A DNA stretch of 56,323 nt from Deltaproteobacteria bacterium GWC2_65_14 (GTDB lineage Bacteria > Desulfobacterota > Deferrimicrobia > Deferrimicrobiales > Deferrimicrobiaceae), in the NCBI GenBank assembly GCA_001797615.1, contig MGPV01000012.1, positions 1 to 56,323 on the forward strand. The letters are read 5' to 3'. Position 1 is the stretch's first letter. Every line of letters begins with the position of its first letter. A program made the position numbers and the translations under genes. The notes under the pieces are model-generated. The model saw only the letters and a list, made by a program, of their open reading frames with translations, ran no database searches and had not been told where the DNA came from. Shown here piece after piece: positions 2,559-36,934 of this stretch.

Positions 2559-2669
2559 GGAAATGGCAAAGCGCGATCGAAGCCGGCGGATTCGGCGGAT
2601 GTACCTTCCCGGGGGGATGCGATACATTCGTGGAGTCGGCAGTCAGACAAGTTTGCGCGGAGGGGCGCG

Positions 2670-3668
2670 ATGGCCAAGACCAGGAGATCCTGGTCCGGGG
2701 GGGCGAAGCGGCGGACCAAGCCCCGCCCCATGACCAAGCCGGCCATGATGGACTGGGCGCTTCGGCTCCTGCGGCTCCTGAACGAGCGGAAGGTCCTCAC
2801 CTCGCGGGTCGTGGCCGAGGAGTTCGGCGTGAACATCCGGACGGCCCAGCGGTACCTCCTGTACCTTTCCGCCCTGCCGTGCGTTATCGCGGACGAGGAA
2901 AAGCACAGCTACACGCTCACATCGGACTACGTGGTGAGCGACAAGATCCTGAACGTCTCCGAGATGTCGCTGGTGTGCGCCCTGATCGACTACGCGGTCC
3001 ACATCTTCGGCCCCGAGCACTCCAAATTCCTCACGTCGCTCAAGAACCGGATCTTCCGGATGCCCGACGTCTACCGGATCGTCAAGGACGAGGCGATCGA
3101 CATGGAGAAGGTGGCGGCCGTCCAGCTCGACCTGGAGCGGCACATCAAGAACCGCGAGGTGATCTCCTTCGGCTACCGCAAGTCCGGCAAGCGCTACACG
3201 GTGGAGCCGTACCGGATCCTCTACGCGGGCGGGTTCTGGTACCTTGCGGCGCGGCACGACGGGATGCTGAAGAAATTCCTGCTCGACATGATCGAGGGGG
3301 TGCGGCCCGCGGGGAGGAGCTACGCGGAAGTCCCCGATCCGATCCGCCAAGCCCTGGCCGAGGCGCAGACCGCCTGGTTCCACGACGCCCCGCCCGACCG
3401 GGTGACGGTGGAGTTCGACGCGGAGGTCGCCCACTTCTTCGAGCGGAAGCTCTTCTTCCCCCGCCAGGAGATCGTGGAGCGGAAGGGAAACGGCAACCTC
3501 GTCCTGGCCTTCGACGCCCACAACGAGATGGACCTGCGCGAGCACCTCGCGCGCTGGATGCCGTACTTCCGGGTCATCTCCCCGGACCGATATCGGGAGT
3601 ATGTAGCCCATGTGGCAGGGGAGTGTGCGGGGAAGAACCGGGAGCAGGTCACCTATCCCTCGACTTGA
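2670..3668 (+). CDS. wHTH-WYL-WCX transcriptional regulator
   Basis: GGAGG RBS; HTH LTSRVVAEEFGVNIRTAQRYL; WYL core VEPYRILYAGGFWYLAA; C-terminal LREHLARWMPYFRVISP. Confidence 0.92.
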   Translation: MAKTRRSWSGGAKRRTKPRPMTKPAMMDWALRLLRLLNERKVLTSRVVAEEFGVNIRTAQRYLLYLSALPCVIADEEKHSYTLTSDYVVSDKILNVSEMSLVCALIDYAVHIFGPEHSKFLTSLKNRIFRMPDVYRIVKDEAIDMEKVAAVQLDLERHIKNREVISFGYRKSGKRYTVEPYRILYAGGFWYLAARHDGMLKKFLLDMIEGVRPAGRSYAEVPDPIRQALAEAQTAWFHDAPPDRVTVEFDAEVAHFFERKLFFPRQEIVERKGNGNLVLAFDAHNEMDLREHLARWMPYFRVISPDRYREYVAHVAGECAGKNREQVTYPST

Positions 3669-3716
3669 TGCGAGGGCAGTGATTCAATATGGGGGACCGG
3701 GCAGCGGAGGGGTTTC

Positions 3717-4049
3717 ATGAAGTGCGATTTGGATAAACTTATTTCACGGATTCTTGAATTCCGGGATCGGCGCAACTGGGCCCAGTTCCACAACCCCAAA
3801 GACCTGGCCCTCGGGCTTTCCGTCGAAGCCGCCGAGCTCAACGAACAGTTCCTGTGGAAAAAACCGGAGGACGCTGATCCGAAGCGGGTTCGGGAAGAAC
3901 TGGCCGACGTGCTCATATTCGCCCTGATGCTCCTCGAGAAGTACAAGCTCGACTTCGAGGAAATCGTCCTCGAAAAGCTTGCGGCTAACGAGGAAAAATA
4001 TCCGGTGGACAAGGCCCGCAACCGCGCAGCGAAATATACCGACCTCTGA
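3717..4049 (+). CDS. MazG-like (all-alpha) nucleotide pyrophosphohydrolase
   Basis: FRDRRNWAQFHNPKDLALGLSVEAAELNE...EELADVLIF...KLAANEEKYP. Confidence 0.92.
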   Translation: MKCDLDKLISRILEFRDRRNWAQFHNPKDLALGLSVEAAELNEQFLWKKPEDADPKRVREELADVLIFALMLLEKYKLDFEEIVLEKLAANEEKYPVDKARNRAAKYTDL

Positions 4050-4052
4050 CGA

Positions 4053-5936
4053 ATGAGACTCTACGCCGGCACCTCGGGACAGTTCGTCGAAGACACGGTC
4101 CTGAACCAGATCGCCGGCAAGCTCAGGAATGCCTTCTTCGGTCATTACCGGTACAACCCGCCCCAGGCCGAAGTCCATTCGTGGCAGAACTCTCTCCGGG
4201 CCATGGCCGGGATACTCCAATACGGAGAACTGCTGGACCATGGAGTCATGCTCGAGTACCAGCTTCCTCTCACCTCCCGTCGTCTCGATTTCATGGTCAC
4301 CGGAAAGGGGCAGAGCAACGCCGACAACGCGGTGATCGTCGAGCTCAAGCAGTGGGAGAAGTGCGGCCCTGCGGACGGGGAGAACGAGGTTGCCACATTC
4401 GTTGGGGGAACGACGCGGGAGGTCCTGCATCCGTCGGCGCAGGTAGGACGCTACCGGATGTACCTGTCGGATACCCATACGGCATTCCACGAGGGAAATG
4501 ACCCTGTGTCCCTTGCGGCATGCGCCTATCTCCACAACTATCCCCATGATCCCGATGATGTTCTGTACGATACGAAGTTTGAAGGCGTGCTGAGAAGCGA
4601 TCCGATTTTCACCATGGATGATGCTCCGGCACTCATGGGCTATCTGCAGGAGAGGCTTTGTTCCGGCCGGGGCATGGAGGTCCTGAAGCGGGTCGAAGAA
4701 AGCCGTTACCGGCCCAGCCGAAAGTTGATGGAGCACGTGGGGCAGGTCATCAACGGAAATTCCCGGTATGTCCTCCTGGATGAGCAGGTCGTCGCGTACG
4801 ACAAAGTGCGCGCGTTGGCGAAGAAGGGGTTCCATGACAGGCGCAAGACCGCCATCATCATCAAGGGAGGCCCCGGGACCGGCAAATCGGTGATCGCCAT
4901 CAAGCTCATGGCGGACCTGCTGCTGAACAGCTACAACGCCCACTATGCCACGGGGTCGAGGGCATTCACGGAGACGCTCCGGAACATCATCGGGAACCGG
5001 GGAGCCGTGCAGTTCAAGTACTTCAACAGCTATTCGGCCGCCCAGGCCGATGAGATCGATGTCCTGATCGCGGATGAGTCTCACCGCATCCGCAAGACCA
5101 GCGCCAGCCGCTTCACTGCCTCGGCAGATCGCTCCGACCTCGAGCAAATAGGGGAACTGTTGCGGGCCGCCAAAGTGTGCGTTTTCCTGATCGACGACGT
5201 CCAGGTAGTGCGGCCGAACGAAATCGGCTCCGTGGAGTATATCCGGCGGCACGCGCAGGCGATGAAATGCAGCATCTTCGAATACGAGCTCGAGGCACAG
5301 TTCCGCTGCAGCGGATCGGACGCCTTCGTGAACTGGATAGACAATACCCTAGGCATCCGGCGCACGGTCAACGTCCTGTGGGAAGGGAACGAGTCCTTCG
5401 ACTTCGAGATCTTCGATTCACCCCAGGCGCTTGAGGGAGCCATCCGGGACAAAGCCGCTCAGGGTTACACGGCCCGGATGAGCGCCGGCTTCTGTTGGCA
5501 ATGGTCGAAGCCCAGGCCGGACGGGACCCTGGTGGAGGACGTGGCGATCGGCGATTACCTGCGGCCCTGGAACGCAAGGCCGGAGGCATCCCGGCTGGCG
5601 AAGGGAATTCCCAAAGCATCGCTGTGGGCCCATCAGCCGGGGGGCATCGATCAGATCGGCTGTATCTACACGGCGCAAGGTTTCGAGTTCGATTTCGTGG
5701 GCGTCATATTCGGTGCGGACCTGATCTACAGGTTCGACCGGCAGGAGTGGGTCGGGGACAGACGTCAGTCGTACGATACCGTTGTGAAGAGATCCGGAGA
5801 CAAATTCGTCAACCTGGTAAAAAACACCTACAGGGTCCTTCTTTCAAGGGGTATGAAGGGGTGTTACGTTCATTTCCTCGACAGGGAAACAGAGAACTTT
5901 TTCAGGAGCCGGATGGAGACGGGGAATCGTCCGTAG
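4053..5936 (+). CDS. DUF2075-family protein: PD-(D/E)xK-like nuclease fused to a P-loop helicase (Schlafen group-3 helicase type)
   Basis: LEYQLPLTSRRLDFMV...IVELKQW; Walker A GGPGTGKS; Walker B LIADESHR; GCIYTAQGFEFD; NTYRVLLSRG. Confidence 0.9.
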   Translation: MRLYAGTSGQFVEDTVLNQIAGKLRNAFFGHYRYNPPQAEVHSWQNSLRAMAGILQYGELLDHGVMLEYQLPLTSRRLDFMVTGKGQSNADNAVIVELKQWEKCGPADGENEVATFVGGTTREVLHPSAQVGRYRMYLSDTHTAFHEGNDPVSLAACAYLHNYPHDPDDVLYDTKFEGVLRSDPIFTMDDAPALMGYLQERLCSGRGMEVLKRVEESRYRPSRKLMEHVGQVINGNSRYVLLDEQVVAYDKVRALAKKGFHDRRKTAIIIKGGPGTGKSVIAIKLMADLLLNSYNAHYATGSRAFTETLRNIIGNRGAVQFKYFNSYSAAQADEIDVLIADESHRIRKTSASRFTASADRSDLEQIGELLRAAKVCVFLIDDVQVVRPNEIGSVEYIRRHAQAMKCSIFEYELEAQFRCSGSDAFVNWIDNTLGIRRTVNVLWEGNESFDFEIFDSPQALEGAIRDKAAQGYTARMSAGFCWQWSKPRPDGTLVEDVAIGDYLRPWNARPEASRLAKGIPKASLWAHQPGGIDQIGCIYTAQGFEFDFVGVIFGADLIYRFDRQEWVGDRRQSYDTVVKRSGDKFVNLVKNTYRVLLSRGMKGCYVHFLDRETENFFRSRMETGNRP

Positions 5937-5987
5937 CAGAGAGCAGGAAGGGATCGTCATGAGCCCGCAGGCCAGGCGAGCGAGTGC

Positions 5988-6899
5988 ATGAATGCATTCG
6001 TAGGGATCACCGACTGGGACTGGTTCGATCTGCTGCGCACCCGCCCGGAGCTCGAGGAGGTGAACTTCTGGCAACCTTCCGGCTCCCGCCAGTTCCGTGC
6101 CCTGAACCCCGGCGAGCTGTTCCTCTTCAAGCTGCACAGTCCGCGGAATTACATCGTCGGTGGAGGTCTCTTCGCGCATTCCAGTCTGTTGCCGATCAGC
6201 CTTGCGTGGGAGGCCTTCGGGATGGCAAACGGCGCCGCTGATCTCGTGCAGATGCGGTCCCGCGTCGAACGATATCGCCGTCAAGGGCAGGATCATTCCA
6301 CTGATTACATCATCGGATGCATTCTCCTCGAGCAGCCGTTCTTCCTCCGTGAAGACCAGTGGGTTGGGGTGCCGCACGATTGGAGCCCGAACATCGTCCA
6401 GGGGCGCGGCTACGACCTGACGGTTGAACCCGGCCTGACGCTTTGGGCCCGGTTGCAGACTGCAAGAGGAGCCGCCTTGGAGGTGCGGGAAGAAGAAGCG
6501 AGGTACGGCAGGCCGATCTTGTCACTACCCCGTCTTGGCCAGGGATCCTTTCGCGTGATAGTGACGGATGCGTATGAGCGGCGTTGCGCGCTGACCAATG
6601 AGCGTACTCTTCCTGCTCTGGATGCCGCCCATATCAAGCCGTATTCGGACAGCGGCGGGCACCGGGTCGAAAACGGCCTGCTTCTGCGCAGAGACCTTCA
6701 CGCCCTGTTCGACCGGGGCTACGTGACCGTGACGCCGGACCTTGTCGTCGAGGTCAGCCGCCGCATTCGGGAGGAGTTCGAGAACGGTCGTGACTATTAC
6801 AGGCTGCACGGCGAACCAGTCCGTCCGCCCGGAAACCCGGTGCATCGCCCATCCGCGGAATACCTGAGATGGCACAACGAGTGCGTCTTTCGAGGATAG
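5988..6899 (+). CDS. HNH endonuclease (HNH_2 type) with a possible PUA/EVE-like N-terminal domain
   Basis: C-terminal CALTNERTLPALDAAHIKPY...NGLLLRRDLHALFDRG; N-terminal VNFWQP...LNPGELFLFKLHSPRNYIVGGG. Confidence 0.85.
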   Translation: MNAFVGITDWDWFDLLRTRPELEEVNFWQPSGSRQFRALNPGELFLFKLHSPRNYIVGGGLFAHSSLLPISLAWEAFGMANGAADLVQMRSRVERYRRQGQDHSTDYIIGCILLEQPFFLREDQWVGVPHDWSPNIVQGRGYDLTVEPGLTLWARLQTARGAALEVREEEARYGRPILSLPRLGQGSFRVIVTDAYERRCALTNERTLPALDAAHIKPYSDSGGHRVENGLLLRRDLHALFDRGYVTVTPDLVVEVSRRIREEFENGRDYYRLHGEPVRPPGNPVHRPSAEYLRWHNECVFRG

Positions 6900-10171: not shown

Positions 10172-10584
10172 ACATCGTCCTCGACACGAACGTCCTCGTG
10201 GCGGGCCTGTTGTCGCCGTTCGGTCCGTGCGGGGAGATCGTACGGATGGTTTCCTCCGGGGAATTGACCCTCTGTCTCGATGCCCGGATCGTGACCGAAT
10301 ACAGCGAAGTCCTGAAACGGCCGAAATTCCGGTTCGAAGAGGAAAAGGTCGATGCGTTACTGGATTTCATCGACCTCAGGGGGCGGACGGTGGCGTCTTC
10401 GCCCCTGCGGAAAGCCCTTCCCGATCCCGCCGACGAACCGTTCCTTGAGGTCGCAATCGCCGGGCGGGCGGCATGTCTTGTCACGGGGAACCGGGTCCAT
10501 TTTCCCGGCAGGCTGCGCCAACGCGTGATGGTTCTCACGCCGCGGGAATTTCTGGACCGATACAGGAAGCGAACCGTCCTCTAA
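10168..10584 (+). CDS. PIN-domain toxin (VapC-like, PIN_3 type)
   Basis: IVLDTNVLVAGL...EYSEVLKRPKF...DPADEPFLEVA...LVTGN. Confidence 0.9.
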   Translation: MNIVLDTNVLVAGLLSPFGPCGEIVRMVSSGELTLCLDARIVTEYSEVLKRPKFRFEEEKVDALLDFIDLRGRTVASSPLRKALPDPADEPFLEVAIAGRAACLVTGNRVHFPGRLRQRVMVLTPREFLDRYRKRTVL

Positions 10585-10682
10585 GGACGGACGAGAAAAA
10601 TATCAGCAATGCTCTCTGTCGCGACAAGTTCGGAACCCTGTCCGCGATTGGCCGGAATACATGGATCGAGGGCAGGCATCCG

Positions 10683-11309
10683 GTGACACACGGCAAGAGC
10701 CGGTCGAAGCCGGCCGTGACGATGCAGGACGTCCGAACCCGTCTTGCGACAATGGACAAAGGCACGCTTGCCGACATGCTCGTCGATCAGGCGATGGAGG
10801 ACGACCGATTGCGGCAGCGTCTGCTCATGAAGGCGGCGAGGAAAGGCCCAAAGGGGCTTGATGTGGCCACGTATCGTCGGGCCATCGACGAGGCGGTCGA
10901 CGCAGGCGGTTTCGTGGATTACCGCGCCGTCGAAAAGGCGATCGAATCCGTCGACGACTCGGACGGCCACATGGGCGGAATCCTCGAACGTCTCCAGGAA
11001 ATCCATCACGAGGCGTGCAAGAAGGCCAAACCCGAGCCGGAAGCGTTGGCAAGGAGGCTCTTCGAATGGGAATTGCGAACGGATTGGGATACCTTCCACG
11101 GCGCCGCGCAGACGTACGCGCGTATCCTTGGAGAGGAAGGGCTGGCGGTCTACCGGAAGCTCGCCGAGGCGGAATGGGCCAAGGTGCTGGCCGTGGGCCA
11201 TGGAGGGCGGCTCCTGTTCGTCGTGATCGTGGTCAGAAAGGACATGATCCGAGTCATATCGGCGCGGGACATGAATCGGAAGGAAAGGAAGGTGTACGAG
11301 TCATCATGA
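10683..11309 (+). pseudogene. Chimeric ORF: internally deleted helical protein (SWIM-finger-associated type) fused in frame to the C-terminal half of a BrnT toxin
   Basis: Helical part ...GGFVDYR|AVEKAIESVDDSDG...AEAEWAKV, then |LAVGHGGRLLFVVIVVRKDMIRVISARDMNRKERKVYE (BrnT RxISAR motif) from ~11187. Confidence 0.7.
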
Positions 11310-13340: not shown

Positions 13341-13967
13341 TTACGGGCCGGACCGGGACTGATTCACCGCATGGATCAGCAGCTCCAGGGGCACGGCCCC
13401 TTCCAGGACGAATTTTTCCCCGACGACGAAGGTGGGGATCCCCGTCACGCCGGTCGCGGAGGCGATCTGTTTCTGCTTCTCCAGCCTCTCTTCGTACGCC
13501 GGGTCGCTCCAGGCGCGGTCCACCGTATCGGCGGGAAGGCCGGCTTCCGACGCGATCCGCCGAAGCACCTCTTCGTCCCCGAGGTTCTTCCCCTCCGAGA
13601 AATAGCCCCGGAACAGCCGTTCGTTCAGCTCCTCGAACCGGTCGGGATCGAGTTCCCTGGCTGCCTCCGCGAGCAAAAGCGCCTTGTGGGAATTTATCAT
13701 AAACGTCCTTTCGGCGAAGACGATATCCTCCTCGGACCCCATCTGCGCGAGGGAGTCCATCATCCGCGCCCATCGTTCCGGTGGATATCCCAGGCTGGAG
13801 ATGGGCGATCCTTGAGGAGGAGTGTCCGGATGGATCTCCGTGAAAACACGTTCGACCTTCAAGGGGACCCGGGTGCCCAGACGGGCGAGACGCCTCTCGC
13901 CCACGTAGCAGAACGGTCAGGTGTAGTCGGTGAAGACCCTGACCGGAAGTTCGCGAGATTCCCGCAT
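13341..13967 (-). CDS. DsbA/FrnE-family oxidoreductase, candidate selenoprotein (UxxC), 208 aa
   Basis: GGAGG RBS, ATG 13967, MRESRELPVRVFTDYT-TGA(13919-13917)-PFCYVGERRL, continuing in frame through TGIPTFVVG to the stop at 13341. Confidence 0.88.
13883..13902 (-). promoter_or_regulatory. Candidate bacterial SECIS hairpin
   Basis: GGGCGAGA-GGCG-UCUCGCCC, 8-bp stem, apical loop starts with G, 22 nt after the UGA. Confidence 0.75.
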
Positions 13968-14026
13968 TTCCGTATCCTCCGAAGGTAAAGGTCTTACGGT
14001 ATGAGTTCTTTTCCGGAGGGAAGGAT

Positions 14027-14840: not shown

Positions 14841-15604
14841 TCAGACCAGCGCCTTCATATACTCCCGGTTCAGATGCGCGATGAACTTCACGTCGATCCC
14901 CTTCGGGCATGCGGCCTGGCACTCGTAGTGGTTCGAGCAGTTCCCGAAGCCGCAGTCCTGCATCGCATCGATCATGGCCTGGACCCGCTCCTTCGCCTCG
15001 ATTCTCCCCTGGGGGAGGGCGGCCAGCTGGGCGACCTTGGCGCTGGTGAAGAGCATCGCCGAGCTGTTCGGGCAGGCCGCCACGCAGGCGCCGCAGCCGA
15101 TGCACTCCGCGGCGTCCATGGAGTACTCCGCGTCGGGCTTCGGGATCGGCAGCGCGTTGGCGTCCGGAACCCCGCCGGTGTGCGCGGAGGTGTAGCCGCC
15201 CGCCTCGATGATACGGTCGAGGGCGTTGCGGTCGACCACGAGGTCCTTGACGACCGGAAACGCGCGGGCGCGCCACGGCTCGATGTAGATCGTGTCGCCG
15301 TCCTTGAACTTGCGCATGTGGAGCTGGCAGACCGTCGTTCGGTCCTGTCCCCCGTGGGGAACGCCGTTGATCACCTGGGAGCAGGTCCCGCAGATCCCCT
15401 CCCGGCAGTCGTGGTCGAAGACGATCGGCTCCTTCCCGCTCTTGATCAGATCCTCGTTCACCACGTCGAGCATCTCCAGGAAGGAGTGGTGCTCGGTGAT
15501 CTCCCTGGCGGTGTAGGTCTCGAACCGCCCGGGGGTCTTCGAGCCGTTCTGCCGCCAGACGATCAGCGTAAGCGTCATCGTCTTGTGTTCGCTGTGTCCG
15601 CTCA

Positions 15605-15605
<1 letters not shown>
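14841..15605 (-). CDS. sdhB: Succinate dehydrogenase/fumarate reductase iron-sulfur subunit
   Basis: [35 protein letters not shown]; ATG 15605 overlaps the sdhA TAA. Confidence 0.95.
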
Positions 15606-17518
<1,913 letters not shown>

Positions 17519-17528
17519 AGGGAACCCC

Positions 17529-18194
17529 CTATCTGCTCAGGATGCCGATGAGAATGAGAACGGGAATGGCGCTGTACCCCACGAAGAAGAGGGCGGAGAG
17601 CAGGTTCGCGAGCACCACGTATTTCGGCAGGGTCCGGTCGTTGGAAAGCCCCAGGGTCTGCAGGAAGCTGTGGATCCCGTGGCGGAGGTGGAGGAAGAGG
17701 ACCACCATGGCGGCCACGTAGGCGGCCGTGATCGGTACGATCCGGAAGCTGCCGATCACCATCGAGAAGACGTCGCCCGGCCGGATCGCCACCGCCTCGG
17801 GGGAGATGTCCGGCGTGACCCGGAGGGTGAACTGGGCCAGGTGGTAGCCGAGGAAGGCCAGGAGCAGGGCACCCGTCCAGATCATCGTCTCGCTGGAAAA
17901 GGTGGCCTTGAGCTTCCGGTTCACCGCATACTTCTTCGGGTTCGCCGCCCAGTTCTCCAGCGTCAGCAGGATGCCGAAGAAGACGTGGATCGCCAGCATG
18001 GCGATCATGAAGAGGCGGAAGATCCAGACCAGCGGGCCCAGGCTGTGGAGCTTCTCCGCGTAAGTGTTCAGCGCGCTCGGGCCGATGAAGATGGAGGAGT
18101 TCCCGAGAAGGTGCACGATGACGAACAGGAGCATGAAGAACCCGGTGATCGCCATCAGCAGCTTCCTTGCTACGGTGTTCGAAAGTACCGACAT
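17529..18194 (-). CDS. sdhC: Succinate dehydrogenase cytochrome b558 subunit
   Basis: RKLLMAITG, five hydrophobic segments, heme His in HLLGN, HVFFG, HLAQF and HLRHG. Confidence 0.93.
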
Positions 18195-19189: not shown

Positions 19190-20656
19190 ATGCCGCGTGA
19201 TCCCGGGTCGGGGGGAGCCGGACCGGGATTTCCCGTTTTCCGGTTCGACGGCCGCCGGCTCGCGGCCGCCGACCATCATCCCGTATCGGAGTTCCCGGTC
19301 CACCTCACGGTGAACGGGACCGCGCTCGCCACCCTGATCGCTTCCCCGCACGATCTCGAATATCTCGTGGCGGGATTCCTCCGAATGCAGGGGATGGTCG
19401 GGCGGGCGGACGACATCGTGATGCTCGGGGTCTGCCCGGAATCCGGCGGCGCCAGCGTGAGAATCCGGGGGGAGGTCCCGGAACAGCTGCGGCCGATCCT
19501 GACCTCCGGCTGCGGGGGAGGGGTCGGCTTTCACCTGCCGGAGGCCGGGGAGGCGGGCGGCCGGGAGGAACCGCGGGAACCGGTCGGGGAACACCGGTTT
19601 TCGCCCGGCGCGATCTTCGCCATGATGGATTCTCTCGGGCGGCAGGCGGAGAGGTACAAAAGCCACGGGGGGATCCATTCCGCCGCGGCGGGGGACGGGG
19701 AGAGGATCCTGCTGGCCGCCGAGGATATCGGCCGCCACAACACGATCGACCGGATCGCCGGGGAGGCGCTCCTCAAGGGGATCGACCTCTCCGGGAAGAT
19801 CCTCGTCAGCTCCGGCCGGATCTCCTCGGAGATGGCGGCCAAGGGGGCGGCCTTGCGGATCTCCGTCATCGCCTCGAGGACCTCCCCGACCGACTTGGCG
19901 ATCCGGATCGCCGGGGAGGCGGGGATCACCCTCCTCGGCTACGTGCGGGGGGGACGGTTCACCGTGTACACCCATCCCTGGAGGATCGCGCTTCCTTCCG
20001 AAAGCGAGGGTCCGTTGGAGGGGGTCACGGGAGTGATCCTGGCCGGGGGGCCGTCCACCCGGATGGGGAAAAACAAGGCGCTCCTCCCCTGGCGCGGGGG
20101 AAGGCTCATCGAGGAGGTGTACGGGCGGATGTCCCGGATCTTCCGGGAGGTGATCGTGGTCACGAACAGCCCGGACCTCTACCCGTTCCTTCCCTGCCGG
20201 ATGGTCCCGGATCTCTACCCCGGGATGGGGAGTCTGGCGGGGGTCCATTCGGGACTGAAGCACGCGGGAACCCCCTGGATCTTCGCCGTCGCCTGCGACA
20301 TGCCCTTTCTCGAGGAACGGCTGGTGCGCCGCCTCCTCTCCTTGCGGGAGGGAGCCGACGTGGTGATCCCGGTAGGCCCGCTCGGTCCGGAGCCGCTGCA
20401 CGCGGCCTACGGAGACGGAGCCCTCCGGGCGGTGGAGGAACTCCTTGCGTCCGGCGAACAGAGGGTCCTCTCGATTCACGAACGGGTGCGGGCCCGGAAG
20501 GTTTCCTGCGAGGAGGTCGGGTCGCTGGATCCGGAGGGGCGCTCCTTTCGGAACATCAACACCCCGGAGGACTACTCCCGCCTGCTCGGGGAGGAAACCG
20601 GATCCGGACCCGACGCCCTGGAGTTGGGCGGGGACCGGGGCCGGCCGGATCGATGA
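19190..20656 (+). CDS. fdhD-mobA: FdhD sulfurtransferase fused to MobA (Mo/W-cofactor guanylyltransferase)
   Basis: FdhD: LIASPHDLEYLVAGFL, LTSGCGGG, EDIGRHNTIDRI, SSGRISSEM. MobA: VILAGGPSTRMGKNKALL, GSLAGVHSGL, ACDMPF, NINTPED. Confidence 0.93.
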   Translation: MPRDPGSGGAGPGFPVFRFDGRRLAAADHHPVSEFPVHLTVNGTALATLIASPHDLEYLVAGFLRMQGMVGRADDIVMLGVCPESGGASVRIRGEVPEQLRPILTSGCGGGVGFHLPEAGEAGGREEPREPVGEHRFSPGAIFAMMDSLGRQAERYKSHGGIHSAAAGDGERILLAAEDIGRHNTIDRIAGEALLKGIDLSGKILVSSGRISSEMAAKGAALRISVIASRTSPTDLAIRIAGEAGITLLGYVRGGRFTVYTHPWRIALPSESEGPLEGVTGVILAGGPSTRMGKNKALLPWRGGRLIEEVYGRMSRIFREVIVVTNSPDLYPFLPCRMVPDLYPGMGSLAGVHSGLKHAGTPWIFAVACDMPFLEERLVRRLLSLREGADVVIPVGPLGPEPLHAAYGDGALRAVEELLASGEQRVLSIHERVRARKVSCEEVGSLDPEGRSFRNINTPEDYSRLLGEETGSGPDALELGGDRGRPDR

Positions 20657-21195: not shown

Positions 21196-22398
21196 TCAGC
21201 ATCGTCCGTAGAGGAAGAGGACCTCCACGCGCTCGCCGGCCTCGAAATGGGTTCGATCCACGGGCAGGATCGCGATCCCGGTTCCGCGGACCATCGTCCG
21301 GAGGATCCCCGTGTTCTGGTCTCCCGCGGAACGGACCCGGTATTCCCCGTCCGAAATCTCCGACTCCACCCGCAGGAACTGGATCCTCCCCGGTTTCTTC
21401 CGGACCGCCTCCGTGAGAACGGCCTTCACGCAGGGCTTCACCGGGGCGGGATCTCCGGCCATCTTCCGCAGGGCGGGGCGCGCGAGCATTTCGAAGGAGA
21501 TCATGGCCGACACGGGGTTCCCCGGCAGCGAAAACACCGGCCTGCGGCCCTGGAGTCCGAAGGCGAACGGTCGCCCCGGACGCATCTGCACCCTCCAGAA
21601 GATCTCGCGGACCGACAGCCCCGACAACGCCTCCCGGACGAGGTCCCTGTCGCCCGCGGATACCCCCGCCGAGGTGAGGAGGGCGTCCTCCGCGAGCCCG
21701 GCCGACAGCTTTCCCCGAAGCGACGGAAGGGAATCCCTCGCGATTCCGAGCATCACGGGCTCCCCGCCTGCCTCCCGGACCGCCGACGCCAGGGAGAAGC
21801 TGTTGCTGTTTACGATCGCCCCCGGGGGGATCTCCCCGCCCGGCTCCACCAGTTCGTCGCCGGTCGCAAGGATCGCGACCCGAGGCTTCCGGTACACCGG
21901 GATGAGGACCCTCCCGAACGAGGCGAGCAGGCTGATCTCCGGGGGCCTCAGGACCGTTCCGGGCGCCAGGACCCGGTCTCCCTTCCTCACGTCCTCCCCC
22001 CGGACCCGGACGTGGGCGCCGGCCTTCACCGCCCGCTCGATCCGCACCCGCCCACCCTCCTCCAGGGCATCCTCGAACGGGACCACGGCGTCGCACTCCG
22101 CGGGAAGCGGGGCCCCGGTCATGATCCGGACGGCGGACCCCGCCTTCAGCGCGGTTTTTCCGGAAAAGCCGGCGGGGCGATAGCCCGCGATCGCAAGGGT
22201 CACCGGGCCGGTGCACTCGGAACACCGGACGGCGAACCCGTCCATCGCGGAGTTGTCCGCGGAGGGCATGTCGAAGGGGGCGAAGATCGCCTCGGAGAGG
22301 ATCCGGCCGGCCGCCTCGAGCAGGGGGGCATGCTCCGCGGCGAGCGGAAAAACGCTGTCTAGAATCCTCGTCCTAGCCTCTTCGAAGGGGATGTCCAT
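21196..22398 (-). CDS. moeA: Molybdopterin molybdo/tungsto-transferase
   Basis: SAMDGFA, RIMTGAP, ILATGDELV, TSAGVSAGDRD, SLPGNPVS. Confidence 0.96.
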   Translation of the reverse strand: MDIPFEEARTRILDSVFPLAAEHAPLLEAAGRILSEAIFAPFDMPSADNSAMDGFAVRCSECTGPVTLAIAGYRPAGFSGKTALKAGSAVRIMTGAPLPAECDAVVPFEDALEEGGRVRIERAVKAGAHVRVRGEDVRKGDRVLAPGTVLRPPEISLLASFGRVLIPVYRKPRVAILATGDELVEPGGEIPPGAIVNSNSFSLASAVREAGGEPVMLGIARDSLPSLRGKLSAGLAEDALLTSAGVSAGDRDLVREALSGLSVREIFWRVQMRPGRPFAFGLQGRRPVFSLPGNPVSAMISFEMLARPALRKMAGDPAPVKPCVKAVLTEAVRKKPGRIQFLRVESEISDGEYRVRSAGDQNTGILRTMVRGTGIAILPVDRTHFEAGERVEVLFLYGRC

Positions 22399-25916: not shown

Positions 25917-26963
25917 ATGCGGTACAAGCTGCTCGGCCGGAGCGGACTGCGGGTGTCGGAGATCTGCCTCGGGACGATGACGTTCGGCGAGGAGTGGGGA
26001 TTCGGGGCCACCCGGGAGGAAAGCAGAAGGATCTTCGACGCGTTCGCGGACGCGGGCGGAAACTTCATCGACACCGCGAACATGTACACGAACGGCACGA
26101 GCGAGCGGTTCACGGGGGAGTTTCTCGGGCAGGACCGCGACCGGTTCGTGCTGGCCACCAAGTACACCCTCAGCATGCGGGCGGACGACCCGAACGCGAG
26201 CGGCAATCACCGGAAGAACCTGGTGCAGTCGCTCGAGGCGAGCCTTTCGCGGCTGGGGACCGACTACATCGACCTGTACTGGCTTCACGCCTGGGATTTC
26301 ATGACTCCCGTGGAGGAGGTGATGCGGGCGCTCGACGACGTGGTCCGGGCCGGGAAGGTGCGGTACGTCGGGGTGTCCGACACCCCCGCATGGATCGTGT
26401 CCCGCGCGAACACCCTGGCGGAACTGCGGGGATGGACGCCGTTCATCGGGCTGCAGATCGAGTACAGCCTGATCCAGCGCACGGTCGAGCGCGACCTGAT
26501 CCCGATGGCGAACGCGCTCGACATCGCGGTGACCGCGTGGGGGGCGATCGGCGGCGGCGTCCTTTCCGGGAAATACAGCGGCAAGCCGGGGAAGGTGAAG
26601 GCGACCGATTCCCGAAGGAAGGATTCCAACCTCTGGAGGATCAGCGAGAAGAACCTCGCGATCGCGCGCGACGTCGAGAAGGTCGCCCGCGAGATCGGGC
26701 GGACCCCCTCCCAGGTCGCCCTGACCTGGGTCCGGCAGCAGAAGGGGGTCATGATTCCGATCCTGGGCGTGCGGACCCTCGAGCAGACGATGGACAACCT
26801 GGGCTGCCTCGACTTCGAGCTGAAGGAGGAGCACCTGGAGCGGCTCTCCCGCATCAGCGCCGTCGAGATGGGCTTCCCCTACGACTTCCTGGCCATGGAC
26901 ATGGCGAAGAAGGCGGTGTACGGAGAGACCTTCCCCCGGATCGACAACCACCGGAACCGGTAG
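25917..26963 (+). CDS. Aldo/keto reductase
   Basis: [49 protein letters not shown]. Confidence 0.96.
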
Positions 26964-27006
26964 CTGCCGATCCGGAGGAGGACGCCTTCGGGAAGGAGGA
27001 GAGCGG

Positions 27007-28311
27007 ATGATGGGGTACCAGCCGATCGAGAACTACGGGGTGATCGGCGACCTCCACACGATCGCGCTCGCCGGGATGGACGGCTCGATCGATTTCATGT
27101 GCTTTCCCCACTTCGATTCCCCGACCATCTTCGCGGGGCTCCTGGACCGGGAGCGGGGGGGGGCGTTCCGGATCGCCCCGGCGTTGAAAGGGGCGAGGCA
27201 GAAGCAGCTCTATCTTCCCGACTCGAACATCCTGCTCTCCCGGTTCCTCTCGGACGAGGGGGTGGCCGAGATCACCGACTTCATGACGATCGCGGAGGGG
27301 GAGCACTCGCACGACCTCGTCCGGCAGGTCGGGACGGTCCGCGGGGAGGTCGGATTCCGGCTGCTCTGCGATCCGAGGTTCGACTACGGACGGCGGGGGC
27401 ACCGGGTCGAGAGGTTCGACGGCGGCGTTCTCTTCGTGCCGGAAGGGGAGGGGATCCCCGCGCTCCGGTTCCGGTCCCGGGTCCCGCTCGACATCGTCTC
27501 GGGTGCTGTCACGGCGGAGTTCCGCCTCGGGGCGGGGGAGGCCGCAGCCTTCATCCTGGAAGAGGCGAAGCCGGGCGTGGAATCCCCCTCCGCCGGAGAG
27601 GACTACGTCGCCCGGTCGCTGGAGAAGACCCTGGCCTACTGGCGCCGCTGGATGGCCCGGTCCACGTACCGGGGACGATGGCGGGAGATGGTGAACCGGT
27701 CGGCCCTTGCGCTCAAGCTGCTCACCTCGCATCCGGACGGGTCCATCGTGGCGGCCCCGACCTTCGGGCTCCCGGAGAAGATCGGCGGGGTGCGGAACTG
27801 GGACTACCGGTACACCTGGATCCGGGACGCTTCCTTCACCGTCTACGCGCTGATCCGCCTCGGTTACACGGAGGAGGCGGCGGCCTTCATGCGCTGGATC
27901 GAGGCGCGGTGCGGGGAGCTCCGGGAGGACGGGTCGCTCCAGGTGATGTACGGCATCGACGGACGTCACGACCTCCCCGAAACGGTCCTCTCCCATTTCG
28001 AGGGGTACCGGAAATCGGCCCCGGTGCGGATCGGGAACGCCGCGGCCACGCAGCTCCAGCTCGACATCTACGGGGAGCTGATGGACTCCGTCTACCTCTA
28101 CAACAAGTACGGCGAGCCGATCTCCTACGACCTGTGGACCGACCTGGTCCGGCTGATCGAGTGGGTCTGCAGGAACTGGAGCCGGAAGGACGAGGGGATC
28201 TGGGAGGTGCGCGGGGGGCAGCAGGGAAATTACCCCCAGGCCTTCACCCACCTGGGGCTGATCAGCGCCGCCTACAACCTCGACCGCAACCTGTCGGGAG
28301 AGGGGCGGTAG
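27007..28311 (+). pseudogene. GH15 glucoamylase/trehalase-like hydrolase with a large in-frame internal deletion
   Basis: [12 protein letters not shown] and [10 protein letters not shown] join directly (~28224) to the terminal [13 protein letters not shown] motif; 434 aa versus about 600 aa typical. Confidence 0.8.
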
Positions 28312-28350
28312 CCCCTCCGCCCGCCTCCGGGCCCACGAGACCGCCCGGGT

Positions 28351-29319
28351 CTACGGGATCAGCAGAAGCTTTCCGGTGGTCCCGCGTCCCGCCAGGTCCG
28401 AGTGGGCCCGCGAAGCCATCTCCAGCGGATACTCTCCGCCGATCCGCACCCGGAGCTTTCCCGAAGCCGCCCATCCCAGCAGATCCCCGGCCCGCTGGAG
28501 GAGCTCCTCCCGGGTCGCGGTGTAGTGAGACAGGGAGGGACGGGTCAGGAAGAGCCCCCCCCTGGCGCTCAGGATCTGCGGATCCAGCGGAGCGACCGGA
28601 CCGCTCGACTGGCCGTAGAGCACCAGCATCCCACGGGGGGAAAGGCAGTTCAGGCTCTTGTCGAAGGTGTCCCGGCCGACCGAGTCGTAGACCGCCTGAA
28701 CGCCCCGGCCGCCGGTCAACCGCTTCACCTCGGCCTCGAAATCCTGCGACGTGTAGAGAATCACCTCGTCGGCCCCGAATTGCCTCGCCAGCTCCGCCTT
28801 CCCGGGGGTCGAGACGGTGCCGATCGTCCTGGCCCCCCGCCGCTTCGCCATCTGGAGAAGCAGCAGCCCGACCCCCCCCGCGGCCGCGTGGACGAGGCAG
28901 GCGTCGCCCGGCTTCAACGGGAAGGTGCTGTGCGTGAGGTAGTGCGCGGTCATTCCCTGGAGCATCGCGGCGGCCCCGATCCGGGTGTCGACCCCCGTGG
29001 GAAGCCGGACCAGCCGCCAGGAGGGAACGACCGCATATTCCGCGTAGGCGCCCAGCGATCCGGAGTATGCGACACGGTCGCCCGGCGACACTTCCCGGAC
29101 CCCGGGACCGATCTGCTCGACGACGCCCGCCCCCTCGTTCCCAGGAACCATGGGCAGCGGCACCGGGTATTGTCCCAGGCGCTGGTAGATGTCGATGAAG
29201 TTCACGCCGGCCGCCTCGACCCGGACCAGCGCCTGCCCCTCTCCGGGCGAAGGCCGGGGAACCTCCTCCGGGACCATCACCTCCGGACCTCCGAACGTGT
29301 GCACGCGAATCGCTTTCAA
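28351..29319 (-). CDS. qor: NADPH:quinone oxidoreductase (zeta-crystallin/MDR)
   Basis: AGVNFIDIYQRLG, GMTAHYL, HAAAGGVG, YDSVG, TTGKLLL. Confidence 0.93.
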   Translation of the reverse strand: MKAIRVHTFGGPEVMVPEEVPRPSPGEGQALVRVEAAGVNFIDIYQRLGQYPVPLPMVPGNEGAGVVEQIGPGVREVSPGDRVAYSGSLGAYAEYAVVPSWRLVRLPTGVDTRIGAAAMLQGMTAHYLTHSTFPLKPGDACLVHAAAGGVGLLLLQMAKRRGARTIGTVSTPGKAELARQFGADEVILYTSQDFEAEVKRLTGGRGVQAVYDSVGRDTFDKSLNCLSPRGMLVLYGQSSGPVAPLDPQILSARGGLFLTRPSLSHYTATREELLQRAGDLLGWAASGKLRVRIGGEYPLEMASRAHSDLAGRGTTGKLLLIP

Positions 29320-29352
29320 CGTATCCTCCGTGGAATATTATACTGCTGAAAC

Positions 29353-29451
29353 ACGGTCCGGCTGCTCCTCGATCTTCGGACCCCGATTGCCGGAAAGGAT
29401 GTGCTCGTCGTCGAGGACATCGTCGATACCGGTTCCACCCTTCGTTTCCTG
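29353..29451 (+). pseudogene. hpt: 33-codon relic of hypoxanthine phosphoribosyltransferase
   Basis: TVRLLLDLRTPIAGKDVLVVEDIVDTGSTLRFL contains the PRPP-binding motif; flanks are unrelated. Confidence 0.75.
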
Positions 29452-29572
29452 TGGGCCGTCGGGGAGGAACGGGATTATTTTTGTCACTCCGACAGGCGAT
29501 CAGGTAAAGTAGGAGGCATTCCTTTATTACCCCGCGATCCACACCATCTCAGGAACCAGGGAGGAAGCGTAG

Positions 29573-30076
29573 ATGAAGCCGAAGACGAAAAAGAACATCC
29601 AGGCGGCCTTCGCCGGCGAAAGCCAGGCCCACATGAAGTACTCGATCTTCGCGGACGCGGCGAAGCAGGAAGGGTTCAAGAACATTTGTCGGCTCTTCAC
29701 CGCGATCTCCTTCGCGGAGAAGGTCCATGCCAGCAACCATTTCCGCGTCGTGTACGGCGCAGGCCCGACGACGGAGAACCTGCAGTCGGCGATCGACGGC
29801 GAGACCTACGAAGTGAAGAAGATGTACCCGGAGTTCATGGCGGCGGCGAAAAAGGACAAGGAGCCGGACGCCATCCGCTCCATCCACTTCGCCTTCGAAG
29901 CGGAAAAGACCCACGCGAAGATGTACGCCGACGCGAAGCGGTCGGCGAAAGCCGGGAAGGACATCCGGGTCTCGAGCGTCTACATCTGCTCCGTGTGCGG
30001 ACACACGGTTTTCGGGAAGGCGCCGGTCAACTGCCCCGTCTGCGGCGTGAAAAGGAACCGCTTCAAGAAGTTCTAA
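29573..30076 (+). CDS. rbr: Rubrerythrin
   Basis: FAGESQA, FAEKVHA, GETYE, AEKTHA diiron ligands; C-terminal CSVCGH...CPVCG. Confidence 0.93.
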   Translation: MKPKTKKNIQAAFAGESQAHMKYSIFADAAKQEGFKNICRLFTAISFAEKVHASNHFRVVYGAGPTTENLQSAIDGETYEVKKMYPEFMAAAKKDKEPDAIRSIHFAFEAEKTHAKMYADAKRSAKAGKDIRVSSVYICSVCGHTVFGKAPVNCPVCGVKRNRFKKF

Positions 30077-30111
30077 CGAGGGGCGACATCCACTTCGAAA
30101 GGGGGGACAGT

Positions 30112-30525
30112 ATGGCGGACAGGATCCGGAAGGTCGATTACTACAAGGCGGAGATCGCGAACCGTGTCGGGGAGGGGGCGAGAGTCCTCGGTGCCCTGAA
30201 GGCGGCGAAGGTGGACCTGCTGGCCTTCACCGGATTCCCGAGCGGGCGACGCGTGCAGCTGGACTTCGTTCCGAAGAACGCGGCCCTCTTCCGGAAGGCG
30301 GCGAAGAAGGCGGGACTGAAGGTCGCCCTGAAGAAGGGGTGCTTCCTGGCGCAGGGACGGGACCGGGCCGGCGCGGTCGCCACGATCCTGGAGACGCTCG
30401 CGAAGGCGAAGGTGAGCGTCGTGGCGCTCAACGGGGTCTCCGCGGGGAACGGAAGATTCGGCGCCTTCTTCTGGGTCAAGCCCAAGGACGTGGCGAAGGC
30501 CGCGAAGGCGCTCAAGGCTTCCTGA
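30112..30525 (+). CDS. Basic tandem ACT-like domain protein
   Basis: Two beta-alpha-beta repeats (IANRVGEGARVLGALKAAKVDLLAF; QGRDRAGAVATILETLAKAKVSV). Confidence 0.7.
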   Translation: MADRIRKVDYYKAEIANRVGEGARVLGALKAAKVDLLAFTGFPSGRRVQLDFVPKNAALFRKAAKKAGLKVALKKGCFLAQGRDRAGAVATILETLAKAKVSVVALNGVSAGNGRFGAFFWVKPKDVAKAAKALKAS

Positions 30526-30528
30526 TTC

Positions 30529-31986
30529 TTACGGGGGGTGCTCTCCGCCCAGCGATCCGGCCGGGACCGGTCCGGGAACGGGGAGGAGGTGCGCGATCGA
30601 ATTGGCGTAGTACCGGAGCAGCGGGACCTCCCCGGGGCGGACGAAGAAGAGCCCCTCCCGGTCCTCGACGAGATGGCGGAGGGTGAGCATCCGCAGCCCG
30701 ACCGAGACGGAGTAGTCCTGGTCGGCCCGGGGCAGATAGATGTGGGCGCCCGCCTCCCGGAGGGCCTGCATCAGCCGGTGAACCTCGCCCTTCAGTTCGA
30801 GTTCGCCCGTCCCGGATTCCCCGCGCCGGAGAAGGACGGTCGCCACCAGGGAAACGGGCAGGACCGGGATCACCCGGCCCACCGCCTCCATCAGTTCGTG
30901 GGCCATCGCTTCCACCCGGCGGAACCGCTCCTCCCGGTCGGGGGTCCCGAAACCGGCTCCGGTCCGCCGGCAGTATTCCCGCATCGAGATCGGCGTGCCG
31001 AAGTTCACGCAGGCGTACCCGAACCGGTACCAGCGTCCGGTCAGCATCATGCCGAACTGTCGCAGGGCGAACGCCAGGGTGGTCCACGTGACGAATCCCG
31101 CGCTTTTCCGCTTCGCGCCCGGATCCAGGGAGTGGAGCTGGCTTCGATCCTCCAGCGTCCTGTCGTAGTTGATCCCCACCGGGACGAAGACGAGGTCCCT
31201 CTCCCCGTCCGGCCGGAACCCCTTGACCATGTAGGAAAGAAGGCCGAGTTTCGCTTTCCGCATCCCTCCGTCGCGGCTCAACCCCCCTTCCGGGTAGACC
31301 GCCTGCACCACCCCTCCCTCCGTCGCCATGGCGACGTACCGCTCGAGGACGACCCGGTAGAGGGGATCGGCCGAATTCCTCCGGATGAAATAGGCCCCCA
31401 TCGCGCGGATGAGCGTGTGCAGCGGCCAGATCCGGGCCCACTCCCCGACCGCGTAGCTCAGGGCGGTCCGGGTCGCCGCGAGGTAGGCCACCAGGATGTA
31501 GTCCATGTTGCTCCGGTGGTTCATGACGAAGACGACCGTAGACTTCGGGTCGATCGCGGAGATCCCCGCCTCGTCCGTGAACCCGACCCGCACGCGGTAG
31601 AGGACCCGGGCGGTTCGCCGGGCCAGCCAGTACCCCACCCGGAAATAGGCGTAGGCGTTGAAGGAGGGGACGATCTCCTTCGCGAACCGCTCCACCTCGG
31701 CCATCGTCAGGTCCCGGGGGACGTTGCGGTCCCGCGCGCGCTCCCCGGCCGCTTCCAGGACCGCGGGATCGTACATCAGCCGGTCGATCAGGACCTGGCG
31801 CTTGGTCAGCGAGAAGGGGCGGATCTCGAGGTGGAGGCGCTTGCCGATCTCCTCGATCGCACGGCTCACCCGCCGCCGGAGAAACCAGCGCACGCTGGGG
31901 ATCAGCATCCGTTCGAGGATCGCCCAGCCCGCCAGGAGGGCGAGAATCGCGGCAAGCCAGACGGGGAGGGTCACGTTCGCGGACAT
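30529..31986 (-). CDS. Glycerol-3-phosphate/phospholipid acyltransferase (PlsB-like)
   Basis: HRSNMD (HxxxxD), GAYFIRR, YPEGGLSRDG; N-terminal TM segment. Confidence 0.88.
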   Translation of the reverse strand: MSANVTLPVWLAAILALLAGWAILERMLIPSVRWFLRRRVSRAIEEIGKRLHLEIRPFSLTKRQVLIDRLMYDPAVLEAAGERARDRNVPRDLTMAEVERFAKEIVPSFNAYAYFRVGYWLARRTARVLYRVRVGFTDEAGISAIDPKSTVVFVMNHRSNMDYILVAYLAATRTALSYAVGEWARIWPLHTLIRAMGAYFIRRNSADPLYRVVLERYVAMATEGGVVQAVYPEGGLSRDGGMRKAKLGLLSYMVKGFRPDGERDLVFVPVGINYDRTLEDRSQLHSLDPGAKRKSAGFVTWTTLAFALRQFGMMLTGRWYRFGYACVNFGTPISMREYCRRTGAGFGTPDREERFRRVEAMAHELMEAVGRVIPVLPVSLVATVLLRRGESGTGELELKGEVHRLMQALREAGAHIYLPRADQDYSVSVGLRMLTLRHLVEDREGLFFVRPGEVPLLRYYANSIAHLLPVPGPVPAGSLGGEHPP

Positions 31987-32179
31987 CGGACCTTCTCCAT
32001 TCCCGTATTCTAAACCGACACCCGGATTTTCCGGAGCGATCCTTTGGGGAGGGGTCGCGCAGGATCCCCTGGTCATCCCCGTGCTGGCCGCACCCCCGGT
32101 TTCCATGTATCATTGGAGGAATGCCGGGGAGGGCCGTCCCCCCCCCCCGGACGCATCTCCCTTGGACCGGAGGAGGTCG

Positions 32180-32500
32180 TTGAACACGGGAAAGGGATCC
32201 TGGAAAGTTTCCGCCGCACTGTTATTCTCAGCCGCCTTGCTGATCCTGTCCGCGTCAGCTTCCTTCGCCTCGACCGCCGGGGAGATCTGGAACCACGAAC
32301 TGTACGAGATCGACAATCACGTCATCCGGGTCAGGCAGGTGACCGTCTCCCTCGGGTTCCTGGTCGTCGGCATCCTGCTGCTCAACCAGGGGATCCGCCT
32401 GTTCCGCAAGCGCGTGCTTCCGCGCACCACCCTGAAGCCGATCGAGCTCCGGCTGCTCGGGTCTTCCGGAATCCCGGGCTTGAAGGGGGAGGACGGGTGA
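32180..32500 (+). pseudogene. Remnant of an MscS/MscK-type channel gene (N-terminus joined to a C-terminal tail)
   Basis: GGAGG RBS and TTG start; signal-like segment; IWNHELYEIDNHVIRVRQVTVSLGFLVVGILL..RVLPRT then an abrupt PIELRLL tail. Confidence 0.5.
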
Positions 32501-33693: not shown

Positions 33694-34400
33694 TCTTCCG
33701 CCGGTCCGCCGGATGGGCGTTTCCCGTCGTGCTGCTCCTGGCGGCCGTTCCGCGCGCAGGCGCGGAAGATCCGTACCTTGCGGCGCGTCTCGCGATGGTG
33801 GAGGAGCAGATCGCAGGGGAGGGGGTCGTCGATTCCCGTGTGCTCACGGCGATGCGGGAGGTCCCCAGGCACCGGTTCGTCCCCGCGGAGTACCGCCATC
33901 TCGCCTACATCCCCCGCCCGCTTCCGATCGGGGAGGGGCAGACGATCTCCCAGCCCTACATCGTCGGGTTCATGACGGAGATCCTCCGGCTTCGGGACAC
34001 GGACCGGGTGCTGGAGGTGGGGACCGGCTCCGGGTACCAGGCGGCGATCGCCGCGAAAATCGCCGCCGAGGTCTACAGCGTCGAGATCTTCGAGGTGCTG
34101 GCCGACCGTTCCCGCCGGACCCTCGACGAGCTGAAGTTTCCCAACGTGGTCACGAAGCAGGGGGACGGCTACTACGGGTGGGAAGAGAAGGCGCCCTTCG
34201 ACGCGATCATCGTGACCTGCGCAGGGGGGCATGTCCCTCCGCCGCTCCTGCGGCAGCTGAAGCCGGGAGGGAGGATGATCATGCCGGTGGGCGGTCCGTT
34301 CATGACCCAGAACCTGGTGTTCCTGGAAAAGCATGCGGACGGATCGTTGTCCCAGAAGAATGTCCTCCCCGTCGCATTCGTACGGCTTCTCGGCCACTGA
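33690..34400 (+). CDS. pcm: Protein-L-isoaspartate O-methyltransferase with a signal-peptide-like N-terminus
   Basis: VPRHRFVP, IGEGQTISQPYIV, VLEVGTGSGYQAA, APFDAIIVT, QLKPGGRMIMPVG. Confidence 0.93.
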   Translation: MIFRRSAGWAFPVVLLLAAVPRAGAEDPYLAARLAMVEEQIAGEGVVDSRVLTAMREVPRHRFVPAEYRHLAYIPRPLPIGEGQTISQPYIVGFMTEILRLRDTDRVLEVGTGSGYQAAIAAKIAAEVYSVEIFEVLADRSRRTLDELKFPNVVTKQGDGYYGWEEKAPFDAIIVTCAGGHVPPPLLRQLKPGGRMIMPVGGPFMTQNLVFLEKHADGSLSQKNVLPVAFVRLLGH

Positions 34401-36774: not shown

Positions 36775-36934
36775 TTTTTCCGGTAAACCTTTGTATGGTA
36801 GGCGCATAGAGTTCGACGGACATCCCCGACCGCCAACGGTTTTTCGACGTTTCGTCCGATGGGGACCGCACGGTGCCCCGCCGCCGTGTCCGGACGCCTT
36901 TTCGATCGCCCACGCCCTGGAGGGAGGAGCCCCG

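Follow-up and report, generated by a model that had tools for sequence, protein, structure and literature searches.

A probable selenocysteine-containing FrnE/DsbA-like oxidoreductase with a SECIS hairpin inside its coding region in Deltaproteobacteria bacterium GWC2_65_14

In a 56,323-nt stretch of DNA from Deltaproteobacteria bacterium GWC2_65_14, analysed here as a whole and termed the window, a minus-strand gene interrupted by an in-frame TGA very probably encodes a genuine selenocysteine (Sec)-containing FrnE/DsbA-like oxidoreductase, with a SECIS element located in the coding region. The structure of the gene, the pairing of Sec and Cys forms, the specificity, constraint and covariation of the hairpin, and the assignment to a protein family were all computed here. 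From sequence, we infer that Sec is inserted at the UGA. That the enzyme would act as a reductase or isomerase on physiological substrates is suggested by analogy with the Cys-containing Deinococcus FrnE, as characterized in vitro.

Translation of positions 13341–13967 gave the minus-strand frame MRESRELPVRVFTDYT-TGA-PFCYVGERRL..., which stays open to the TAA (Table 1). The predicted active site reads U17-P-F-C20, with T-U-P-F-C occupying residues 16–20, and Cys20 is the sole Cys in the 208-residue protein. An earlier note, made from the letters of the sequence, had proposed that a ribosome-binding site and an ATG at 13967 open a frame reading FTDYT-UGA-PFC, and that the open-reading-frame track splits this gene. 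All of these elements are present on the minus strand where the note had placed them. ORF and gene callers take GTG 13904 as the start, for a product of 187 aa.

Table 1. Positions of the predicted selenoprotein gene, its recoding elements and neighbouring genes in the window
Feature	Position	Strand	Basis or remark
Full predicted selenoprotein CDS (FrnE/DsbA-like thiol-disulfide oxidoreductase)	13341–13967	-	Translation; 208 residues plus TAA
Shine–Dalgarno GGAGG	13976–13980	-	Read from sequence; 8 nt before the proposed true ATG
Start codon ATG of the predicted selenoprotein CDS	13965–13967	-	Translation
In-frame TGA, putative Sec codon (codon/residue 17)	13917–13919	-	Aligned with the first Cys of CPFC/CPWC
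TGC, predicted resolving Cys20 of the UxxC motif	13908–13910	-	Translation; invariant across all homologues
GTG (Val22), taken as start by ORF and gene callers	13902–13904	-	ORF listing 13341–13904, giving a 187-aa product
Predicted SECIS hairpin inside the CDS, 22 nt	13882–13903	-	9-bp stem: outer U-G plus GGGCGAGA/UCUCGCCC; RNAfold
Hairpin arms	5′ arm U13903 to A13895; 3′ arm U13890 to G13882	-	8 Watson–Crick pairs plus outer U-G
Apical loop GGCG	13891–13894	-	4 nt
Stop codon TAA	13341–13343	-	209 codons counting the stop
sdhB-like	14841–15992	-	Upstream of the selenoprotein gene, same strand
sdhA	15605–17518	-	Upstream, same strand
sdhC	17529–18194	-	Upstream, same strand
FdhD–MobA fusion	19190–20656	+	488-aa ORF: FdhD/NarQ (formate dehydrogenase sulfurtransferase) plus MobA-like NTP transferase; Pfam
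MoeA	21196–22398		Pfam

With Cys put in place of the stop, the protein matched the Pfam DSBA domain (PF01323) over residues 9–200 with an E-value of 1.9e-33 and a score of 116 bits, against a cut-off of 25.6. This match covers profile positions 2–189 of 191; as it spans the UGA, the 16 codons ahead of that triplet lie within the DSBA domain. Comparison with the sequences of solved structures identified Deinococcus radiodurans FrnE (5cnw/5cp1; E = 3e-20, residues 4–203) as the closest. Streptomyces SCO1869 matched with E = 4e-14 and some other DsbA or thioredoxin-domain chains with ~2e-7; classical periplasmic DsbA chains matched weakly, with E-values of about 1e-3 to 1e-4 and in the C-terminal half only. 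In the FrnE alignment, DIWSDIACPWCYIGKRRF stands opposite RVFTDYT-U-PFCYVGERRL and, over a shorter stretch, SDIACPWCYIGKRRF lies over TDYT-U-PFCYVGERRL. The cis-Pro loop is conserved in this alignment (GIPTF versus GVPFF), and P178 is invariant in the alignment of homologues. The N terminus, MRESRELPVRVF, leads directly into strand β1 and, by eye, carries no hydrophobic leader. With no signal peptide visible by such inspection and strand β1 running from about residue 8, the protein is probably cytoplasmic.

The D. radiodurans protein (FrnE, DR_0659) is a cytoplasmic DsbA-family disulfide reductase/isomerase that shares with the window protein the position of a CP(W/F)C-type motif, the cis-Pro loop and, as judged by eye for the window protein, the absence of a signal peptide, but has Cys where the window protein is predicted to have Sec. 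FrnE displays disulfide isomerase activity, insulin reduction and TrxR-linked reduction of DTNB, and its mutant is sensitive to cadmium and diamide (PMC8945050). The two proteins also differ at the C terminus. The CxxxxC tail of D. radiodurans FrnE has been implicated in regeneration of the active site, whereas the window protein stops at residue 208 without such a tail. This tail is optional among FrnE proteins, being present in many although not all of them, and is needed for TrxR-linked regeneration in the D. radiodurans enzyme (PMC8945050). Because the window protein has neither the tail nor a Cys besides C20, its route of re-reduction would have to differ from that of D. radiodurans FrnE, as has been suggested for the FrnE proteins of D. 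maricopensis and S. roseofulvus. E. coli-type periplasmic DsbA, a DsbB-dependent oxidase, has the thioredoxin fold with an inserted helical domain in common with the window protein, but bears a signal peptide and a CPHC motif. We rejected assignment to this periplasmic oxidase because the window protein has no leader visible by eye, carries UPFC and is far less similar to DsbA than to FrnE, which points to another subfamily. No DsbB-like gene was found among the window ORFs scanned with Pfam.

The homologues pair Sec and Cys at the position of the UGA. A search of 5.8 billion proteins returned 341 matches at E ≤ 1e-10, which fall into two length classes: one of ~207 aa that covers the whole query and one of ~187–188 aa that covers 85–90% of it. 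Proteins of the long class carry F(S/T)DYICPFCYIG, and full-length Cys homologues align from residue 1; those of the short class always start with MGERRLAR, which corresponds to the GTG after the UGA. When a single genome of each GTDB species was scanned, 80 loci were recovered; the aligned codon is TGC or TGT in 58 of them and TGA in 22 (L001–L015, L023, L024, L026, L031, L041, L076 and L078), the latter preceded in frame by LPVTVFTDYI. The earlier note had placed the UGA at the first Cys of CPFC and had named a Cys at this position in homologues as a check; the 58 Cys-codon loci, in which this residue is the nucleophilic Cys, bear it out. Codons before the UGA vary synonymously while their amino acids (Leu, Val, Thr, Phe and Ile) are kept, so the segment before the UGA is translated in the same frame as the part that follows it.

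Sec loci derive mostly from metagenome-assembled genomes (MAGs) that bear the label Deltaproteobacteria, Candidatus Deferrimicrobium or Candidatus Deferrimicrobiaceae, together with one Nitrospirota; the window copy has its nearest relatives in MAGs with the first or the last of these three labels. Cys forms are found in this lineage too, as well as in many Gammaproteobacteria. The Cys-form paralogues or orthologues of the lineage (for example, L016–L022, L025 and L027, from Candidatus Deferrimicrobiaceae MAGs; ~207 aa, FSDYICPFCYIGDRRLARL) are 51–57% identical to the window protein over the full length and have the same architecture, with TGC where the Sec clade has TGA. After the active site, the Cys clade has Ile-Gly-Asp and the Sec clade Val-Gly-Glu, which is consistent with an RNA stem that dictates the codons. 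A metagenome scan used the pattern GAYTAYNNNTGACCNTTYTGYTA, which stops before the hairpin, and matched at least 120 contigs; among the matches listed, at least about 107 contigs hold genuine Sec-form DsbA-like ORFs, from many clades. As a separate observation, near-identical Deferrimicrobiaceae-type Sec or Cys forms (L012, L022 and L024) occur in MAGs labelled Actinomycetota, Limnocylindria and Nitrospirae; these odd labels probably reflect errors of binning or labelling rather than transfer.

Downstream of the UGA lies a hairpin with the properties of a bacterial SECIS (bSECIS). It starts 14 nt after the UGA, its first Watson–Crick pair is at the 15th nucleotide and the first base of its loop is at +23; its codons specify V-G-E-R-R-L-A-R. 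In isolation it folds with –16.3 kcal/mol (z = –3.75), and none of 200 dinucleotide shuffles was as stable. The 66-nt context around the UGA is unexceptional against shuffles (z = –1.39), so the signal is that of the local 22-nt hairpin. The 8-bp stem beginning 15 nt downstream and the G-initiated 4-nt loop at +23 that the earlier note had described are exact, and an outer U-G pair extends the stem to 9 bp. Published bSECIS criteria specify a loop of 3–9 nt, an upper stem of 4–16 bp, G in the first two loop positions, a distance of 16–37 nt from UGA to loop and a minimum free energy of –7.5 kcal/mol or lower (PMC13188914). The hairpin lies within all of these ranges, with its 4-nt GGCG loop, 9 bp, loop at +23 and –16.3 kcal/mol, and agrees with the SECIS model (G in the first loop positions, 16–37 nt) on which that note had relied. 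A scan of the whole window with Rfam at gathering thresholds gave no match.

Within the clade of the window gene, the hairpin is constrained at the level of RNA. Across 22 sequences (21 Sec loci, with L078 excluded, plus the window), the 22-nt element is nearly invariant, synonymous sites included, and the rare Arg codons AGG and CGT do not vary. Synonymous diversity averages 0.052 in hairpin codons versus 0.249 in other codons (Mann–Whitney p = 0.001, this p-value being indicative only, as the compared sequences are phylogenetically related). The GGCG loop is present in all 28 unique clade sequences from genomes and metagenomes; of the stem variants among these, four keep pairing by G-U wobble and three touch terminal pairs only. 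By contrast, the Cys-form relatives of the lineage (YIGDRRLARL) use other codons for IGDRRLA and have no hairpin. This specificity extends beyond the clade: among the matches listed, a hairpin of at least 6 bp with a loop in the SECIS window was found in 101 of the 118 unique Sec sequences versus 11 of the 56 Cys sequences, and 100 of those 101 Sec-form hairpins have G in the first two loop positions.

Because the hairpin of the window's own clade is invariant, covariation comes only from sister clades, in which the size of the hairpin differs: the window's clade has a larger, sequence-frozen element (9 bp with a GGCG tetraloop), and in most other Sec clades the stem has 7 bp and the loop 5 nt. 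In a gapless alignment of 86 Sec sequences outside the window's clade, the 7-bp helix, which begins at the same nucleotide (columns 17–23 with 29–35), has 91.7% of its cells paired, compared with 76.2% in shuffles and 26–52% for slid partners. It contains 82 double-sided changes versus 30.5 expected, and its covariation score is 0.405 versus 0.137 when shuffled (0/500 shuffles reach 0.405) and 0.04–0.22 for slid partners. One helix position shows five pair types (AU, CG, UG, GC and UA). On the strength of this compensatory covariation in the 86 aligned sequences, the hairpin structure is conserved by compensatory change across the family, and the window's clade carries an extended version of it.

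We propose the following course of expression and catalysis. Translation would start at ATG 13967 behind the GGAGG, and the hairpin 14 nt past the UGA would act as a bacterial SECIS, recruiting SelB–GTP–Sec-tRNA(Sec) to the ribosome. Sec would then be inserted at UGA 13919–13917 instead of termination, and translation would continue to the TAA at 13341. The predicted product is one 208-residue cytoplasmic FrnE-type DsbA-like enzyme in which the nucleophilic N-terminal residue of the CxxC motif is Sec17. Such an enzyme would cycle between the selenol/thiol and selenenylsulfide states, thereby reducing or isomerizing disulfides of cytoplasmic substrates.

The machinery for Sec insertion is not encoded alongside the gene. 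ARAGORN found no tRNA-Sec (selC) in the 56-kb window, in the 22 Sec loci or in 205 loci, and the window is without any tRNA gene. E. coli SelA, SelB and SelD queries (NC_000913.3) had no tblastn match in the window, and no homologues of these proteins were found by Pfam over 50 window ORFs. Run against all loci as well, the tblastn search revealed no selA, selB or selD in any of them; its only SelB match there, a weak one in L139, is LepA/EF4 and was discarded. An in-frame TGA scan for coding signal on both sides detected gene junctions only, so the window yielded no second candidate selenoprotein gene. TGA ends 11 of the 25 Pfam-supported window genes and is therefore an ordinary stop here, which excludes a reassigned genetic code and makes the proposed recoding site-specific.

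Other readings of the interrupted gene have to be weighed against a genuine selenoprotein. The gene could be a pseudogene, or the product of a sequencing or assembly error, in which a Cys codon had mutated to, or been misread as, TGA: one base change turns TGC or TGT into TGA, and the 56-kb window contains no Sec machinery. Such a change would not explain why the same TGA recurs in 22 independent species-level genomes and the metagenome contigs described above, why the frames on both sides of it are intact and conserved, or why a hairpin under RNA-level constraint is absent from the Cys forms; in the window copy itself the ribosome-binding site and the frame are intact, and the SECIS matches the consensus. 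We consider decay or error highly improbable here and, judged by the comparative data, effectively refuted as a general explanation. It is also conceivable that the short product is the real one; that is, that translation starts at GTG 13904 to give a 187-aa DsbA-domain protein without a redox motif, the 16-codon ORF being unrelated or a leader peptide. ORF and gene callers do output this product, here and in all relatives. However, GTG 13904 lies in the hairpin stem without a Shine–Dalgarno sequence, the region upstream of it having no purine-rich motif comparable to GGAGG, whereas ATG 13967 has GGAGG 8 nt before it. The short product would lose strand β1 and the entire UxxC site, to which both Pfam DSBA and FrnE align, and the 16 codons upstream show synonymous changes that leave a conserved protein sequence. 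We regard this reading as extremely improbable.

A third reading accepts recoding and changes its outcome, the UGA being decoded as Cys or another residue by a SelB-dependent Cys-charged tRNA or a suppressor tRNA. SelB-dependent Cys-tRNAs have been proposed in some anaerobes. The hairpin and the comparative data prove at most recoding and SelB-type recruitment, rather than the identity of the residue, and here too the lack of visible Sec machinery in the 56-kb window can be counted in its favour. Against it, catalogues list the family as one with Sec in a UxxC motif, and a costly UGA and SECIS would be an unparsimonious means of encoding Cys in a lineage that also has Cys-codon paralogues; moreover, TGA serves as a normal stop codon in the window. 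There is in our view only a very slight chance that a residue other than Sec is inserted, and a Sec-containing enzyme remains the preferred reading.

As a selenoprotein, the gene is an ordinary, previously unannotated member of a family known since 2005. In that year, a 'DsbA-like protein' (COG2761, UxxC, 9 sequences) with a predicted SECIS was described as a new selenoprotein family in the Sargasso Sea metagenome (PMC1088965), in agreement with the earlier note's statement that Sec-containing DsbA-like proteins are known. DsbA-like selenoproteins were later found in Anaeromyxobacter dehalogenans, Desulfovibrio desulfuricans and Desulfotomaculum reducens (PMC1794560), were counted in 2016 as 45 genes in 41 organisms (PMC5029168) and are listed in a 2026 review as 'DsbA-like protein form 1, PF01323, UxxC' (PMC13188914). 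The window gene has in common with form 1 (PF01323/COG2761) the same Pfam domain, a UxxC motif with Sec in the first place, a downstream bSECIS with a loop G and widespread Cys homologues; each of the testable defining features of the family (the PF01323 domain, UxxC, bSECIS and the Sec/Cys pair) was found. The family, its motif and the recoding mechanism are already established, and the gene raises no new biological question.

Its practical value lies in annotation and in a record of Sec use in the lineage. All Sec-form database relatives examined are called as proteins of 187–193 aa starting from MGERRLAR, including NCBI entries under the name 'DsbA family oxidoreductase [Candidatus Deferrimicrobium sp.]'. 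Read against the frames described here, the whole predicted selenoprotein clade is systematically mis-annotated, the catalytic Sec-x-x-Cys site having been lost from the entries. As a consequence of these truncated entries, selenium use by these sediment and groundwater bacteria would be under-counted in functional and selenoproteome inventories. A literature search on Sec use in the Deferrimicrobium/MBNT15/Deferrimicrobiaceae lineage found nothing relevant, although the supplement of a large selenoproteome survey may include it. We tentatively suggest that the gene and its at least 22 orthologues could be the first evidence of Sec use in this Candidatus Deferrimicrobiaceae or MBNT15-type lineage and, as part of the same tentative reading, that a clade-specific frozen SECIS may force the Val-Gly-Glu-Arg-Arg-Leu-Ala codons of helix α1. 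The data set of 118 Sec-form and 56 Cys-form sequences, in which the position of the hairpin is fixed, offers a clean natural case of an RNA element that constrains coding sequence.

The genes around the selenoprotein gene appear to carry no functional weight. An alpha/beta hydrolase gene also lies upstream on the same strand and an SDR gene downstream, and the FdhD–MobA fusion and MoeA are 5–8 kb away. The same-strand run with sdh genes and the nearby Mo/W-cofactor genes to which the earlier note had drawn attention are real, but this neighbourhood is not conserved in relatives, where the neighbours are genes for cytochrome bd oxidase and a Zn-dependent dehydrogenase (Zn-ADH), or for YjbQ and an aldo-keto reductase. 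We therefore regard the sdh, hydrolase, SDR and Mo-cofactor context as incidental, and a functional link to succinate dehydrogenase or to the Mo/W-cofactor genes was dropped. In its own right, the FdhD–MobA fusion implies that the genome encodes, at another site, a formate dehydrogenase of the molybdo- or tungsto-pterin type; this enzyme is often itself a selenoprotein. A thioredoxin-reductase-like flavoprotein is encoded at 43338–44264 and could be a redox partner of the selenoprotein, though 30 kb from its gene.

Several other loci of the window were recorded. Four abutting same-frame ORFs on the plus strand (2559–6899) encode a WYL/WCX-domain protein, a MazG-like protein, a Schlafen-group-3 (SLFN-g3) helicase and an HNH endonuclease; this cluster looks like a defence island, and the pair of MazG-like and SLFN-helicase genes is found again, within a few kb of the Sec-DsbA gene, in the genome of a close relative with shared local synteny (GCA_040960625.1; L204, 2855–5081). 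A 278-aa ORF on the plus strand (10473–11309) has a DUF6880 match and a C-terminal BrnT-toxin-like segment just under the Pfam cut-off, and a 71%-identical copy of it lies near the Sec-DsbA gene in L002 (187–843). On the minus strand, a 1671-aa ORF (50847–55862) contains three separate adh_short/KR domains and nothing else detected by Pfam, an unusual multi-SDR architecture. Finally, positions 25917–41080 hold a cluster related to compatible solutes and trehalose, with genes for an aldo-keto reductase, a GH15/trehalase-like protein, rubrerythrin, a GT20 (OtsA-like) protein, a TreT-like trehalose synthase and a GH100/GDE-like hydrolase.
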